DNA of 64,000 nucleotides from the IMG/VR virus record IMGVR_UViG_3300021964_000013; one strand, given 5' to 3'. Shown here piece after piece: positions 19,407 through 62,683 of the stretch. A model generated the notes under the pieces. The model saw only the letters and a program-made list of their open reading frames with translations. It had not been told where the DNA came from and made no database searches. Position 1 is the first letter of the stretch; every line of letters starts with the position of its first letter. This DNA is from a virus. The position numbers and the translations under genes were made by a program.

Positions 19407-20500
19407 ACCTTATTTCTGATTTCAATCAACAAATTTCCGATTTGATATTCCCCTACTTCGTAGTGTGGGATTGATAATCGGATTTTGTTTATAGTATACA
19501 TATCCTCATCGGTCATGGGGTATGTTTCGTACACCATTACATCAACCATTTCAGGTAAAACAAATTTAGATCTTATATCATAATTTGTATTCTGTTGTTC
19601 GTTTTTGATGTAGTCTTCAGGTACCTTACCAAGATTAATCTTATCGAAGTAAGGTTCGAGATTGTAAAGTTTACTATCATTTAGTGTGGTAAGACCCATG
19701 TTAAAAGTCTTATAGGTGAATATCTCATCCTCCCAATATCTAAGTTCATTGAACACGGGAATAGGTATACCCCACTTACGTATGAAATTTCTTATGTTTC
19801 TGTGTTCACTCAACCTACTTTCATCGGAGCGTAACTCCCTACTTGTTTTAGACACGAAGTGATAGACCACAGCACACTCTGTAGTTTTAAGGTTATACCC
19901 CTTTAGTTTTGCTCTAATTAGGAAGTCATCATCTTCACAAAAGAAGGGATCGAAAGTAAATCCATCGAATAACCCCACATCCATAAAGACCGACTTATAA
20001 CCTGACATGAAAAATGTACCACCATCAACTAATACATCATTATGTTTCACCCGATCAACATACTCATTAAACATTGGGTAATTGAAATCAAAAAACGATC
20101 TACCAAGATCTAACAATACCTTACCGGGTCTTTTATGTCCCTTAAAAATTGGGGGTTCAATTGTGGTGTAAGTTAAAAGAGTCTTTTCATCAATTAGACG
20201 AGATAGGTTTTCTAAAAAGTTCTGACCAATAACCATATCATTATGGATTAGAACTAATTTTTCAGTATCTACTAATTTGATGGCGGAGTTGTAATTGTCA
20301 GAAAAGGTTAGTTTATCATCGTCATGTATAAATGAAAGGTAATCATCCTCTAACGACTGTAACCATTCTAACGTACCATCAGTTGAACCACCACTACTTA
20401 TGACCATTGGTGCTTCGGGGTATATATCTCGTATTCTATTATAACAATCTTTTGTGTAGTCTAAATTATTGTAGACTGCAAGTACTAATGATATATCCAT
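19403..20500 (-). CDS. Glycosyltransferase family 2
   Basis: ISLVLAVYNNLDYT, GSTDGT, HNDMV, FCEDDDF motifs. Confidence 0.85.
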   Translation of the reverse strand: MDISLVLAVYNNLDYTKDCYNRIRDIYPEAPMVISSGGSTDGTLEWLQSLEDDYLSFIHDDDKLTFSDNYNSAIKLVDTEKLVLIHNDMVIGQNFLENLSRLIDEKTLLTYTTIEPPIFKGHKRPGKVLLDLGRSFFDFNYPMFNEYVDRVKHNDVLVDGGTFFMSGYKSVFMDVGLFDGFTFDPFFCEDDDFLIRAKLKGYNLKTTECAVVYHFVSKTSRELRSDESRLSEHRNIRNFIRKWGIPIPVFNELRYWEDEIFTYKTFNMGLTTLNDSKLYNLEPYFDKINLGKVPEDYIKNEQQNTNYDIRSKFVLPEMVDVMVYETYPMTDEDMYTINKIRLSIPHYEVGEYQIGNLLIEIRNKV

Positions 20501-20502
20501 AA

Positions 20503-21132
20503 TTATGATTGGAGGTCGTCGTATAGTTTATTTTGTCTCTCCTGTCTTTCGATGGTTTTAGGGTGGATTAGAGAGTAGATCTCATCCTCAGGTAGGTTAG
20601 TGTAGGTATTGAAGTTAACTAACCTCTCATGCACCTTACCGTACCATCTTATTCTACCTTCTTTCTTCCATATACGAGTTTGGTAATCAGGGAAGTTAAC
20701 CCAACCTTTTTTATTGGTCCTCCAACCCCAATTTTCCACATGTTCTTCAGTTAGTCCATCAACAGTATTAACTCTCGGAACTAAAAACACCTCATTCTTA
20801 GGGTTGACCAATATAATCTCAGGTAAGACCCTAATTAAGTTAGGGTGTGGTATTTCATCTGCATCTATTTGGAATATGTAATCACCTCTACAGTAATCAA
20901 TTAAATTATTTTTCCATTCACCGAAATGACCCTCGAAATAACCCCTCCACATTTGGAAGTTCGGTAATTTATTATACCCGACCAACCAATCAGCAATTTC
21001 TTTGGAACCGTTCTTTTGGTCAAAAAGAACCACAATCTCATCTATCGGTCTTTTGTTCTCCAATAAGAACTTTACGAGTCTTTGGATTTCCTCAAACTCA
21101 TTACATACGGTTATTGCGTAACTAATTTTCAT
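20503..21132 (-). CDS. Glycosyltransferase family 2
   Basis: ISYAITVCNE, IFQIDADE (DxD), PDYQTRI, VHE motifs. Confidence 0.85.
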   Translation of the reverse strand: MKISYAITVCNEFEEIQRLVKFLLENKRPIDEIVVLFDQKNGSKEIADWLVGYNKLPNFQMWRGYFEGHFGEWKNNLIDYCRGDYIFQIDADEIPHPNLIRVLPEIILVNPKNEVFLVPRVNTVDGLTEEHVENWGWRTNKKGWVNFPDYQTRIWKKEGRIRWYGKVHERLVNFNTYTNLPEDEIYSLIHPKTIERQERQNKLYDDLQS

Positions 21133-46048: not shown

Positions 46049-46456
46049 ATGGTTGAAATTTTAAAAAATAACGGTAACATGAAGTTTGCCTTAATTGCTC
46101 ATGACAACAAGAAAGCGGATCTTGTTGCGTTTGTAATGAAACGATTGGATTTCTTTAACAGGGAAGATATTGATATTGTAACCACCGGTACAACAGGTAA
46201 ACACTGTGAACATGCGGGTATCGATAAAGTAGAAAAGGTACATTCAGGACCTTTAGGTGGTGATGCCGAGATTGGTGCGATGGTGACAAGGGGAGAGATA
46301 ACGGGAGTTATATTCTTCAGAGATCCATTAGACAAACACCCACATGATGTCGACATTAATATGTTAATGAGATTATGCGATGTACATAATGTACCACTTG
46401 CAACCAACTATAAGACCGCAAGTATTATGGTCAAATGGTTTAAACTAAACTCATAA
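46049..46456 (+). CDS. mgsA: Methylglyoxal synthase
   Basis: ALIAHDNKK, TGTTG, SGPLGGD.EIG, FFRDPL..HPHDVDI, LATN. Confidence 0.95.
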   Translation: MVEILKNNGNMKFALIAHDNKKADLVAFVMKRLDFFNREDIDIVTTGTTGKHCEHAGIDKVEKVHSGPLGGDAEIGAMVTRGEITGVIFFRDPLDKHPHDVDINMLMRLCDVHNVPLATNYKTASIMVKWFKLNS

Positions 46457-56222: not shown

Positions 56223-56871
56223 AAATTGAATTTAATTGGGGTAGGATAATTAAGATTGTAATAATCTTATACATACTTTCTCGTCTCGCACGAATTATAG
56301 TAAACGAGTTCGTGTTATGAGGAACTTCAATAACAGTGATATAGGATACCCCGATCCCGAATGGTTGGACAACAAACAGGGATTTAAATCTAATGAAGAA
56401 CATGGAGAAGACAAGATACCAATTCATGAGGATCGCAATGGCGAGACTAAAAAGTAAGTACCCCTTCAAACCTCAACGACGTGCGATCGCATCCAAAATG
56501 TGGGTAAGGTATATTGAACGTATAGATTTTAACTTTGGATCATTAGAGGGGGAACTTCTTTGATTATGTTAAAACCTAAATTATATTGGACATCCAATGG
56601 AAAAATTTTTGATAATTATGAAGACGCTCTTGAAGAGAGTAAGAAAAATCCACAGACACTTGATTTGGTTAGAGAACCAAAGGATGAAATGTGCAATAGA
56701 GACCGGTAGTGTCGACCCACTACTATAACCAAATAGATGGGGAGGAGTTTTTATTATTAATTTAAATTTTAAAACGAAATGGTTATTCGTTCCTCCCCAC
56801 TATAATACACAAAATAAGGGTAAACGACCATATTGTATGCAAATACATATAACCTTTAACACCAAAGAGAG

Positions 56872-57129
56872 ATGAAATATTATTGGACAACTAAAGATGG
56901 TACAAAGTTCGATGTGGATGAAATGTCTACCGACCACCTAAGAAATGCATTGAAGATGATTCTTCGCAACTTAGATACTGCTAAGTCTAAGACTAAACCA
57001 ATGGGTAACATTGAATACCAATTCCAAGAGGCTGAGTGGAGAGATTGGGAGAATGAGCAAGAAGAGGATATACATCCCGATAGTGCCTATGGGCAATGGA
57101 TGAAACGATTTAACACCAAAGAGAGATGA
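56872..57129 (+). CDS. Minigene in repeat array, hypothetical
   Basis: WTTKDG...VDEMSTDHLRNAL; starts and ends in the repeat (ends FNTKER). Confidence 0.7.
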   Translation: MKYYWTTKDGTKFDVDEMSTDHLRNALKMILRNLDTAKSKTKPMGNIEYQFQEAEWRDWENEQEEDIHPDSAYGQWMKRFNTKER

Positions 57130-57362
57130 AAACACCAATGCAAGAGTTGATTGAGATAATCAAGAAGCGTCAAGAAGATGATGAGGCAATGCCGTTTATG
57201 TACAATGATAAGATAATTGCGTTGGCAGAACAAATGCTTGAGAAAGAGAAAGAGGTGATGTCACAAGTTTACGCTGATGGTGGTGATTGGGATGAAGTTC
57301 CACAACCACGATTTGAAAACTACTACAACGAAACCTTTAAAACAAAGAGAAATGAAACTTAA
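57126..57362 (+). CDS. Minigene in repeat array, MKTPMQELIE family
   Basis: Paralog of 58257-58499; first 30 nt identical. Confidence 0.7.
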   Translation: MKTPMQELIEIIKKRQEDDEAMPFMYNDKIIALAEQMLEKEKEVMSQVYADGGDWDEVPQPRFENYYNETFKTKRNET

Positions 57363-57588
57363 GAGCGTAGAATTTTTGATGCAACAATTGTTTGACCCCT
57401 CTTGGAAGGAAGGGATAGAAATCCAAAACAAGTGGTTTAAAACAGCAAAAGATATGCATAAGAATGAGATTAAGAATGCTTACAATCAAGGAAAATACGA
57501 TACAGAAGACATAGAACGTGGAGGTATGCCTAACTTTCTAACATTTGAAGATTACTACAACGCAACCTTTAATACCGGAGAAAAATGA
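57352..57588 (+). CDS. Minigene in repeat array, YYN.TF family
   Basis: MKLKSVEFL ... EIKNAY..G ... FEDYYNATFNTGEK. Confidence 0.65.
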   Translation: MKLKSVEFLMQQLFDPSWKEGIEIQNKWFKTAKDMHKNEIKNAYNQGKYDTEDIERGGMPNFLTFEDYYNATFNTGEK

Positions 57589-57755
57589 AAAGACTAATCA
57601 GTATGCTAACAATGAAGAGAACGCTTAAAACTTCTTTTAGAGATGCCGTAAGTGGTGAACAAGTTTTCTTCTACAAAGACAAGTATGGCGTAGAGTGGAT
57701 GGCTAACTATCCGTACTATCCGTTTAAGTTTAGAACCAAAACAAACGACAAATGA
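57585..57755 (+). CDS. Minigene in repeat array (56 aa; not in ORF track)
   Basis: MKRLISMLTMKRTLKTSFRDAVSGEQVFFYKDKYGVEWMANYPYYPFKFRTKTNDK; ATGA overlaps at both ends. Confidence 0.6.
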   Translation: MKRLISMLTMKRTLKTSFRDAVSGEQVFFYKDKYGVEWMANYPYYPFKFRTKTNDK

Positions 57756-58006
57756 AAAACTTATTTAAAAGAAAACCAAGAAGAACACTATCAGAGGTAA
57801 GTGCAGAATTTGCAAAAAAAGTCCCACTTCCCCCTAATAATACTATAGATAGAAAAATAGAAATGACAAGACAAGAATTATTAAACCAAGTAGCAGAAAA
57901 ACTTGAGAGATGTGAGTACACACCAATAGTAACTGAAAAAGAGGAGATGCAGATTTGGGCGATGTTGCTCAATGAAGTTTATGAAGAAATCTTTAACACC
58001 AAATAA
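57752..58006 (+). CDS. Minigene in repeat array, hypothetical
   Basis: Ends EEIFNTK within the repeat. Confidence 0.6.
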   Translation: MKNLFKRKPRRTLSEVSAEFAKKVPLPPNNTIDRKIEMTRQELLNQVAEKLERCEYTPIVTEKEEMQIWAMLLNEVYEEIFNTK

Positions 58007-58024
58007 TGAAAACACCAAAGAAAG

Positions 58025-58150
58025 ATGAGAGAGATACTACTTGATATGTACGAGAAACTTTGGAACGCTGACAAGGACAAGTGGACTTGGAATGTGATAC
58101 TGAAGGACACGCTTGAGAAATTAGAGACCAAAGATGATACAGAACGATAG
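58025..58150 (+). CDS. Minigene in repeat array (41 aa; not in ORF track)
   Basis: MREILLDMYEKLWNADKDKWTWNVILKDTLEKLETKDDTER, after AACACCAAAGAAAGATG. Confidence 0.45.
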   Translation: MREILLDMYEKLWNADKDKWTWNVILKDTLEKLETKDDTER

Positions 58151-58256
58151 GGTTTTGTGTCTTTAATAGAACATTATGTCAAGTAAACTGCACAAGATGC
58201 TTGACACCTTTAACGACAGAGGGACATTGATGTCCCTCTGTGAAAACAAAAGAGAA

Positions 58257-58499
58257 ATGAAAACACCAATGCAAGAGTTGATTGAGCAACTCAATGAATT
58301 AGAAGCAAAGTTAACCTCATTAGAGGATGCAATGTATCGTGGAGGCGTAAGAAACGCTAAACGATTAGCAGAGGAACTACTTAAGAAAGAGAAAGAAATC
58401 ATCTGCAACGCCTTTAGTGATGCACAACACGGAGCAGTTGAGTCAAGATGGACTGCTGAAGAATACTTTGAAGAAACCTTTAACACCAAAGAGAGATGA
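58257..58499 (+). CDS. Minigene in repeat array, MKTPMQELIE family
   Basis: Ends EEYFEETFNTKER. Confidence 0.7.
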   Translation: MKTPMQELIEQLNELEAKLTSLEDAMYRGGVRNAKRLAEELLKKEKEIICNAFSDAQHGAVESRWTAEEYFEETFNTKER

Positions 58500-58678
58500 A
58501 AAAGTTTATAGTTTTTGCATTCAGCCAATACTACCCCGCAGGTGGTATGGATGATGTAGTAGGTAGTTTTGATTACTTTGAAGATGCTGAAGCCCTTGTT
58601 CAAAAGTATAAGGATGATGACTACTATGACCATTATCAAATCTTCAATGCTGTGACAAGGGAGTGGAAAATATATTAA
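58496..58678 (+). CDS. Minigene in repeat array, hypothetical
   Basis: F...YYPAGGM.D..GSFD..EDA. Confidence 0.65.
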   Translation: MKKFIVFAFSQYYPAGGMDDVVGSFDYFEDAEALVQKYKDDDYYDHYQIFNAVTREWKIY

Positions 58679-58690
58679 CACCAAAGAGAG

Positions 58691-58918
58691 ATGAAAGCTA
58701 TCTTAGAGTTTAATCTTCCAGAAGACCAATCTGACTTTGATTTAGCGGTCAATGGTGCTAAAGCACAAGTAGCTCTTTGGGAAATGGACCAATGGTTACG
58801 AGCACAGTGTAAGTATATGCCTGACGATGAATACAGTAAGGATAAATACGAAACATTTGTGAAGTGCAGAGGCCAGCTCCGTGAGATTATGTTTGAGAAT
58901 GGATTAAAATTTGACTAA
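58691..58918 (+). CDS. Minigene in repeat array, conserved phage hypothetical
   Basis: MKAILEFNLPEDQ..F..A ... LW.MDQ.LR...KY. Confidence 0.7.
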   Translation: MKAILEFNLPEDQSDFDLAVNGAKAQVALWEMDQWLRAQCKYMPDDEYSKDKYETFVKCRGQLREIMFENGLKFD

Positions 58919-58930
58919 AAACAAAGAGAG

Positions 58931-59104
58931 ATGAAAACAAACTACGAAACCCAAAGAACAGTAGAAGGACGAGAAACTATTACTGAGATAGCTCGTTACG
59001 CGGCAAAGAACATGCTACGTACTAAAGGTAAATCAGATCACTACGCGAAAATCGTAGACGCTTGTAAAAGCGATCTAGCTACATACGGTTTTGAGCAAGA
59101 TTGA
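58931..59104 (+). CDS. Minigene at the end of the repeat array (57 aa; not in ORF track)
   Basis: MKTNYETQRTVEGRETITEIARYAAKNMLRTKGKSDHYAKIVDACKSDLATYGFEQD. Confidence 0.5.
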   Translation: MKTNYETQRTVEGRETITEIARYAAKNMLRTKGKSDHYAKIVDACKSDLATYGFEQD

Positions 59105-62593: not shown

Positions 62594-62667
62594 GCGCTTG
62601 TAGCTCAGCTGGATAGAGCATCTGCCTTCTAAGCAGACGGTCATAGGTTCGAATCCTATCAGGCGTA
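62594..62667 (+). tRNA. tRNA-Arg (anticodon TCT)
   Basis: Acceptor GCGCTTG/CAGGCGT, D-arm GCTC-AGCTGGATA-GAGC, anticodon arm TCTGC-CTTCTAA-GCAGA, T-loop GGTTCGAATCC; no encoded CCA. Confidence 0.95.
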
Positions 62668-62683
62668 CTAAAATTAATAAATT

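Follow-up and report, generated by a model that had tools for sequence, protein, structure and literature searches.

A conserved junction repeat brackets small-gene cassettes of marine phages and marks their points of exchange

Tiny genes abound in phage genomes. How phages acquire, test and exchange them is little understood, and the promoter early stem-loop elements (PeSLs) of T4-like phages are the only well-studied vehicle. Whether one short sequence could act as a common point of exchange is the question raised by a 64,000-nt stretch of viral DNA (IMG/VR record IMGVR_UViG_3300021964_000013; hereafter the window), in which ten small genes of 41-85 aa (g1 to g10) lie head to tail on the + strand at 56872-59104, as identified from the list of open reading frames (ORFs) and from reading of the sequence. 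A sequence-only reading of this array had described it as a set of cassettes delimited by a 22-bp junction repeat, the 22-mer TTAACACCAAAGAGAGATGAAA (hereafter the motif), with exact copies at 56856, 57110, 58480 and 58675, and all four positions were confirmed; a further copy with 3 mismatches was found at 58915. The variant junctions described ahead of the ATGs at 57352, 57585, 57752, 58006/58025, 58257 and 58931 were likewise recovered on reading the sequence. The exact 22-mer was found nowhere else in the window, and 100 dinucleotide-preserving shuffles gave 0 matches as the chance expectation. The 22-mer is exact as described, but alignment across loci showed that the conserved unit is really about 28 nt long, (A)AACCT followed by the 22-mer and written (A)AACCTTTAACACCAAAGAGAGATGAAA, and that the junction ahead of g7 is split by a hairpin.

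We examined how widely the motif is distributed and what carries it. The exact 22-mer was present in at least 120 IMG/VR contigs and in at least 120 metagenome contigs (TARA, GOS, JGI and ENA marine assemblies), with sources ranging from GOS and TARA to estuarine samples. It had 0 matches in 185,579 prokaryote species genomes (one genome per species). Among cultured and GenBank phages, a 34-nt query around the motif found no match, a search in which the low-complexity filter may have masked the query; the g7 protein also found no match there, and the 10-kb array region matched cultured phages through a tRNA only. None of the papers searched contained the motif sequence. Anatomy was then described in a sample of 121 sources (1.0 Mb), in which copies were counted at up to 3 mismatches with the ATG kept. 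This gave 261 copies, never on both strands within one locus, with a median copy-to-copy spacing of 229 nt.

Five large carrier contigs showed the same layout, with copies clustered and confined to a single strand in each. G002 (297 kb, 99% complete) has 5 copies within 1 kb, G003 (212 kb, 76% complete) has 3, G004 (166 kb, 59% complete) has 10 within 1.8 kb and one at 21.5 kb, G005 (117 kb, 100% complete) has 3 that span the contig ends, and G006 (63.6 kb, 22% complete) has 20 in two blocks, including a 15-cassette array. A whole-genome rescan with a 20-nt core returned 6 copies in the single array of G002, 3 in that of G005 and none elsewhere in either; these near-complete genomes thus have one small same-strand array each, and two of the fragments have 1-2 further copies or clusters. 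Within the window, 8 of the 9 matches to a 14-nt core (up to 2 mismatches) fall within 56864-58936 (2.1 kb), and the other window genes have AT-rich leaders with neither the motif nor a Shine-Dalgarno sequence. Since the core is confined to the array and the other leaders are free of it, the motif is not the general start signal of this genome, and the same confinement in G002 and G005 speaks against a genome-wide start sequence. The record nearest to the window, G001, ends at the array head and has only a degenerate junction there, and homologues of the genes flanking the window array were found in few of the 120 IMG/VR loci.

It was found that the sequences on the two sides of the motif occur in many combinations. 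Among 250 copies with both flanks available, 162 upstream and 169 downstream flank clusters occurred in 215 combinations. Thirty upstream flanks each pair with 2-6 downstream partners, and the C-terminus of g7 precedes six different genes. Pairs with the same upstream flank abruptly lose their identity between +15 and +26, counted from the start of the motif; for pairs with the same downstream flank the loss is at -7 to +4, so both breakpoint zones fall within the motif or at its edges. Most matches of other contigs to the window array accordingly begin 14-17 nt before a junction ATG. The recurrence of 28 flank combinations across independent contigs or samples counts against chimeric assembly. 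No pair of upstream flanks in this sample had two common downstream partners (a four-gamete square), and the case for recombination therefore rests on breakpoints, insertions and deletions, and transfer.

Single-cassette differences were seen between the window array and two other loci. The window order is g7-[motif]-g8-[motif]-g9, and locus L040 has g7-[motif]-g9; locus L063 has a g7 that is 99.6% identical, the motif, a 77-aa gene in place of g8, and a g9 that is 84% identical. An invariant gene order in relatives had been named beforehand as a refutation of shuffling, and so had a purely translational start sequence spread over the whole genome; the orders were found to differ and the motif to be confined to the arrays, so that neither refutation held. 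Across the phage and metagenome contigs recovered with the 22-mer, both cassette order and cassette content vary. Contig ends show a related pattern. Of 133 exact copies, some 31 sit no more than 160 nt from the end of a contig, compared with about 5 expected (hand count), and G001, G004, G005 and G006 end in or at arrays, which fits assembly graphs of populations that differ beyond a shared repeat.

Cassettes have also passed between phages that are otherwise nearly unrelated. The complete G005 and G002 have 11 ORFs in common, mostly of metabolic types (<10% of genes), and their best nucleotide match is one motif-cassette-motif unit of 157 nt at 94.9% identity, with 91.3% to a second copy. 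Among their other long matches, identity ranges from 64 to 80%, apart from one 60-nt piece at 88%. The window shares 1 ORF with G005 and 18 with G002. That single ORF, common to all three phages, which otherwise share almost nothing, encodes a 124-135-aa MGS-like protein (PF02142, 2e-14) at 46049-46456 in the window, 20134-20511 in G005 and 270234-270608 in G002, with 64-78% identity. From the sequence comparisons as a whole, it is highly probable that recombination at the motif reshuffles and transfers cassettes.

We assessed what the motif does to the genes on either side of it. It includes the ATG of the downstream gene, with AAA as the next codon in about 80% of copies, and its stops cover two of the three incoming frames: a TAA lies 12 nt before the ATG, and a TGA overlaps the ATG as ATGA. 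The upstream ORF ends at the motif TGA in 101 of the 261 copies and at the TAA in 48, and is open in the stop-less third frame in only 4; non-coding DNA lies upstream of 90, and 18 are too near the locus edge to call. After removal of the motif-encoded tail, the proteins ending in xFNTKER-stop fall into 39 unrelated families and those of the TAA frame into 27. The AACCT extension is retained also where the upstream DNA is non-coding. Downstream, motif copies head 248 complete genes with a median of 58 aa (range 6-270), in at least 101 families, 66 of them singletons. The repeat had been said to supply the start of the next gene and often the end of the previous one, as is the case for g1 and g7, which end in ..FNTKER-stop with the ATGA overlap, and upstream stops had been placed inside or just before the repeat at 58675 and about 58916, where g8 indeed stops at the TAA of TTAAC and g9 inside the degenerate copy. 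The further statement that the upstream genes are mostly unrelated holds across the 39 and 27 families, but g2 and g7 are paralogues and g2, g3 and g7 have similar tails.

Several smaller observations concern the same reading frames. Near-empty cassettes occur in L083/L114, L085/L092 and L159 (8462-8572), where motif copies 52-70 nt apart enclose ORFs of 10-17 codons, one of which continues through the motif that follows, read in its stop-less third frame (..LTPKRDEK..). A tRNA-Arg(TCT) at 62594-62668 of the window reads AGA, the codon before the TGA in the ..KER-stop frame of the motif; it is 96% identical to a tRNA of G002 and 91% to the tRNA-Arg of Shewanella phages Thanatos-1 and -2. The ..FNTKER tail was also considered as a protein signal and as the main cause of conservation, and this was rejected, more than half of the copies not being read in that frame.

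Conservation was found to act on the nucleotides. The largest cassette family, whose proteins begin MKTPMQELIE, makes up 34 of the 248 genes that follow a motif copy and 25 of 88 proteins encoded upstream of one. Its window members g2 and g7 are about 36% identical, and their homologues, detected independently of the motif, have 28-40% protein identity. The 16 nt before the ATG are nevertheless exact in 14-16 of 25-28 of these homologues and within 3 mismatches in 20-22, and some homologues have no motif at all. Because these genes have diverged while the 16 nt are mostly identical, the conservation is at the nucleotide level and is not that of one family's C-terminus; together with the differing upstream frames, this bears out what had been proposed from the window alone. 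The MKTPMQELIE family may be the origin of the motif sequence.

The composition of the motif was examined for signs of its function. It is purine- and A-rich with no GGAG or other Shine-Dalgarno core, has a G at position -3, and its RNA is predicted to be unstructured (minimum free energy (MFE) -0.5 kcal/mol, z 0.17), with no inverted repeat and no dyad symmetry. The predicted unpaired fraction was 0.60-0.64 for the motif, compared with 0.51-0.56 for its flanks and 0.44-0.50 for control starts. A search of the sequence against the known RNA families of Rfam gave no match, and by-eye pairing with a 16S rRNA 3' tail found only about 4 contiguous pairs. The short sigma factor of the window has its nearest Atlas clusters most commonly in Bacteroidota, and the host is probably a member of this group, which we treat only as a lead. 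This fits a host that ignores Shine-Dalgarno sequences, and initiation in Flavobacterium johnsoniae favours an A at -3 (PMC6847099). The content of the motif, combined with the lack of Shine-Dalgarno sequences in the window phage, leads to its reading as an adaptor at which translation stops and restarts.

The explanation that we favour, with moderate confidence, is that homologous recombination shuffles the cassettes at a conserved sequence that serves translation as a stop/start adaptor. In this model, (A)AACCTTTAACACCAAAGAGAGATGAAA would be a portable adaptor that small accessory genes have in common: a gene that enters the motif from upstream in one of the two stop frames would end in it and the next gene would begin there, and unrelated proteins in one reading frame all gain the ..FNTKER tail. 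The motif itself would act as an unstructured, Shine-Dalgarno-independent leader for initiation or re-initiation. As every cassette is bracketed by the identical sequence, the motif would serve as recombination homology, and same-orientation copies in many co-occurring phages would make this homology available to general recombination. The enzymes would be whatever is present, such as ERF here, RecA/UvsX-like proteins elsewhere, or host RecA. Recombination from copy to copy would produce deletions and duplications, a double crossover during co-infection would replace a single cassette, and motif-cassette-motif units would pass between unrelated phages. The cassettes may be expressed early. As for the function under selection, the position and content of the motif tip the balance slightly towards translational initiation or coupling.

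Several points weigh against this explanation. Homology of 22-28 nt is short for efficient recombination by lambda Red or RecA, and rates are possibly low. The contigs are from metagenomes, and some chimeric joins are conceivable; assembly k-mers usually exceed the repeat length, which, with the flank combinations that recur across samples, makes such joins unlikely as the main cause. The G at -3 means that the motif is not simply an optimal generic start context, the 22-28 invariant bases exceed the need of a ribosome and hint at a specific trans-acting reader, and the gain in predicted accessibility is modest. The exactness of the motif could be kept by repeated transfer rather than by function. 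The translational role is suggested by the position and content of the motif, and the probable assignment to a Bacteroidota host is itself only a lead.

The trans-acting reader is the basis of a rival that is both serious and compatible with the favoured explanation, although we consider it rather unlikely to be the main account. The main role of the motif would here be to bind a regulator, which could be a small RNA or an RNA-binding protein of phage or host and would switch the translation or stability of the small-gene mRNAs together, with recombination as a by-product. It is modelled on RegA/RegB of T4 and on the suspected role of the start-associated sequences of cluster K mycobacteriophages, which have the same layout and for which the authors propose a host or phage reader (PMC3203893). 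A binding site would account for an invariant stretch longer than ribosome binding requires, for its exactness ahead of proteins that diverge to 28-40% identity, for its confinement to one gene class and one orientation, and for a -3 position that is not the favoured A (PMC6847099). The two-frame stops are not explained by a regulator alone. Unrelated carriers share almost no genes (the 11 mostly metabolic ORFs of G005 and G002), so that a common phage-encoded reader is not evident and a host factor would be needed; a comparison of G005, G002 and the window for a shared reader gene returned metabolic-type genes only (ribonucleotide reductase-sized ORFs, MGS-like, lysozyme-like). A regulator could also act alongside a stop/start adaptor and would not exclude it.

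A second possibility, which we regard as quite improbable, is that the copies are compact promoters (-10-like, with no conserved -35) recognised by a sigma factor of the phage or by host polymerase in a modified form, with leaderless or very short-leader transcripts beginning at or just before the ATG. The fixed distance to the ATG and the strict orientation agree with this, as do two sigma-70-family genes directly downstream of the array, and the closest analogues, the PeSLs of T4, are conserved as promoters (PMC2839356). The motif, however, heads no other operon in the 64 kb nor elsewhere in G002 or G005, there is no conservation at the -35 position, and a sigma factor close to that of the window is not common to the carriers, only G002 having one (35% identity). 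A consensus promoter scan found TTAACA-16/18-TAT.. at two copies, with the second hexamer in the variable gene body, and total sites were not above those of shuffled sequence. No terminators lie between the cassettes and the stop codons of most upstream genes fall inside the motif, the latter being more in keeping with polycistronic coupling, and separate candidate control boxes (TAAGGGTA and a double GGCGCA) lie upstream of array heads.

These boxes were noted on inspection of the array heads. The box ACAnAA(G/A)TAAGGGTA(T/A)AA recurs 20-90 nt upstream of the first motif copies in many loci, often in tandem, and the window has a single exact copy at 56805-56825 (+ strand). This copy, ATACACAAAATAAGGGTAAAC, is also the sole exact match to AWAAGGGTAWA in the window and lies upstream of the first junction. 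In some g6 homologues a box of the TAAGGGTA type directly adjoins the ATG (TAAGGGTAAAATG). Judged from the sequence, it may act as a phage promoter, as another control box or, more rarely found, as a site of Shine-Dalgarno type. In L008, L018, L021, L022, L050, L053, L065, L091 and others, 5 nt separate the 22-mer from the end of the double box (T)AGGCGCA-N14-(T)AGGCGCA upstream of it; 23 double GGCGCA pairs were counted in the loci and 0 in the window. In several loci a truncated motif (CCTTTAACACCAA) precedes the double box, as though a control element of about 45 nt had been inserted into the junction. One possible role of the double box is that of an operator, recognised by a direct-repeat-binding regulator. 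In L065, a tRNA-like 3' end (..GGTTCAAGTCCTGTAGGGTCCACC) leads directly into TTTAACACCAA, so that a junction half adjoins a possible tRNA gene.

The sequence-only reading had itself proposed an integron-like system, and a site-specific version of the exchange, with an unrecognised or host-encoded recombinase and circular cassettes, is in our view very improbable. Same-orientation arrays of promoterless-looking minigenes, precise gain, loss and replacement of single cassettes at the repeat, and transfer of motif-cassette-motif units between unrelated phages would all suit it. A search of G002-G006, two of them at least 99% complete, for tyrosine recombinases (PF00589) gave no match, while 14 of 14 control genomes matched; a search of the same five carriers for serine recombinases (PF00239, Resolvase) also gave no match, again with matching controls. 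The attC sites of integrons are imperfect inverted repeats at cassette 3' ends that fold into hairpins. The motif has no inverted repeat, stable fold or dyad, overlaps a start codon instead of lying at the cassette 3' end, and is identical between cassettes, unlike attC sites. Site-specific recombination at the motif is unlikely, given the lack of tyrosine and serine recombinases in the carriers and of a fold or dyad in the motif. The earlier proposal therefore stands as regards the insertion, deletion, replacement and re-ordering of small genes at the junctions, but not as regards its site-specific, integron-like part.

The same proposal had pointed to the ERF gene of the window. This gene is real, but G002-G006 have no homologue of it, and ERF is therefore not a dedicated partner of the motif. 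RecA/UvsX-like proteins were above the family cut-off in three of these five carriers, with a weaker match in a fourth. General homologous recombination at 22-28 nt of homology would thus be sufficient to explain the data without a dedicated enzyme. Hardly credible is the last rival, that the repeat is merely the C-terminus and start region of one tandemly duplicated paralogous family or an assembly artefact, for although g2, g3 and g7 have common ..YYNxTFNT.. tails and MKTPMQELIE is the largest family on both sides of the motif, there are at least 101 downstream and 39 plus 27 unrelated upstream families, 90 copies follow non-coding DNA and 48 are in another frame, synonymous positions are invariant, the same junction combinations occur in independent samples, and the window itself has four exact copies.

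The window array illustrates both intact and altered junctions, all on the + strand. Junction copy 1 (56851-56877; AACCT and the exact 22-mer) follows non-coding DNA and gives the ATG of g1 (85 aa, 56872-57129), which ends ..RFNTKER-stop at the motif TGA and has weak PHROG matches only. The array head also holds a 12-codon mini-ORF (MQIHITFNTKER and a stop; 56836-56874) that terminates with the TGA of this first copy and overlaps the start of g1; it might encode a leader peptide or be fortuitous. Exact copy 2 (57110-57131) joins the g1 stop to the g2 start by the ATGA overlap, and g2 (78 aa, 57126-57362) belongs to the MKTPMQELIE family. A degenerate junction (57336-57357; 4 mismatches over the 16 nt preceding the ATG) leads to g3 (78 aa, 57352-57588), which ends ..TFNTGEK-stop and shares with g2 and g7 the longer C-terminal ..YYNxTFNT.. 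stretch. The following g4 (56 aa, 57585-57755) has a degenerate junction ahead of it (5 mismatches) with an ATGA overlap, and g5 (84 aa, 57752-58006), which ends ..IFNTK-stop, is preceded by a strongly degenerate one (7 mismatches).

The junction before g6 is composite (CTTTAACACCAAATAATGAAAACACCAAAGAAAGATGAGA, 57991-58030): the 5' half of a motif is followed by a remnant that looks like an MKT.. gene start and then by a second motif core. This arrangement suggests a recombination scar ahead of g6. The MKT.. gene start (ATGAAAACACCAA) is joined to the second core via the common word AACACCAA, which is repeated in MKTPMQ-family genes 17 nt past the motif's own copy; the junction may be a deletion scar formed by micro-homology. 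Homologues of g6 itself (41 aa, 58025-58150) are 73-95% identical in 12 loci, with the motif present or absent.

The split junction before g7 (58207-58262) has a half motif, CCTTTAAC, at 58207-58214, a hairpin at 58216-58241, and a variant 3' part, AAAACAAAAGAGAAATGAAA, at 58243-58262 with the g7 ATG. The hairpin has 11 bp with arms ACAGAGGGACA/TGTCCCTCTGT over 26 nt (MFE -19.4 kcal/mol, z -4.5). In L012 and L087 the sequence upstream of the split junction leads directly into an intact motif without the hairpin, and a search of the other 120 loci did not recover the hairpin sequence. The g2 paralogue g7 (80 aa, 58257-58499), whose relative in L063 was described above, ends ..TFNTKER-stop at exact copy 3 (58480-58501), where it overlaps as ATGA with g8 (60 aa, 58496-58678). 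Exact copy 4 (58675-58696) contains the g8 stop and starts g9 (75 aa, 58691-58918), whose homologues occur with and without the motif. Copy 5 (58915-58936; 3 mismatches, core exact) joins g9 to g10 (57 aa, 58931-59104), the last cassette and a member of the second-largest family among the loci. Pfam and PHROGs gave no function for any of the ten genes, the only assignment being g8 to phrog_1411, together with a weak DUF7336 match.

One defined sequence marks hundreds of exchange points and links phages with almost nothing else in common, and exchange at this sequence brings along a translation start that is ready for use, in a lineage seemingly without Shine-Dalgarno sequences. A broader and more tentative conjecture is that the motif is a common currency with which marine phages exchange genes without an integrase: within one host group, phages that are not related would keep an identical adaptor of about 28 nt, bracketed minigenes would move during co-infection and be translated at once, and exactness would be selected for transferability and expression. 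If this is true, it would be chiefly in the arrays that ORFan genes for host takeover or counter-defence arise and are traded by these phages. The motif provides a simple search key for mining hundreds of minigene families, likely with early host-directed functions, and a candidate short Shine-Dalgarno-independent leader for Bacteroidota, and the arrays provide a tractable system for measuring short-homology mosaicism in nature.

Among known systems, the PeSLs of T4-type phages are the nearest. They are short conserved regulatory cassettes before small ORFan genes in hyperplastic regions, where indels and replacements map to them by homologous recombination between copies, with no dedicated recombinase and with mini-circles shown (PMC2839356, PMC4122927). 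The motif resembles them in preceding ORFan genes in plastic regions, in that indels and replacements between relatives map to the repeats, in a unit that extends to the downstream start codon, and in homologous recombination free of an integrase. It differs in that a PeSL is a sigma-70-like early promoter with a stem-loop terminator between genes, whereas the 22-28 nt of the motif hold no stem-loop and have yielded no promoter consensus, the only hairpin (58216-58241) being an insert within one junction. The motif also sits inside a coding continuum as a two-frame stop and a start, and is identical in phages sharing <10% of their genes, whereas PeSL sequences are lineage-specific.

The start-associated sequences (SAS) and extended start-associated sequences (ESAS) of cluster K mycobacteriophages are 13 bp with the consensus GGGATAGGAGCCC, an AGGAG core, a position 3-7 bp before the start, and 11-19 copies over half the genome (PMC3203893). 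As described there, they too are asymmetric, one-orientation repeats directly before the starts (mostly ATG) of non-structural genes of different families, with the upstream stop sometimes inside the repeat, absence from host genomes, and a suspected role in translation initiation (PMC3203893). The motif is longer, includes the ATG, has a different sequence without a GGAG core, lies in tight minigene arrays and marks breakpoints; the sections of that account consulted describe no gene-shuffling role for SAS (PMC3203893). Homologous recombination at short conserved gene-boundary sequences, as discussed in PMC3029335, would likewise produce mosaic genomes, but such sequences are not identifiable at most mosaic boundaries (PMC3029335), whereas here one defined sequence lies at hundreds of junctions. 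With integrons, the arrays share one orientation, small and mostly promoterless cassettes, variable content, and gain and loss of single cassettes; they differ in having no IntI-type recombinase in the five carriers and no attC-like folded site, and in a repeat that lies at the 5' start of the gene and is identical between cassettes. That a regulatory motif can mediate gene shuffling is already known, and we read the arrays as working in the manner of PeSLs; new is the frame-tolerant stop/start junction as a shared element, identical across unrelated phages worldwide, that organises long minigene arrays.

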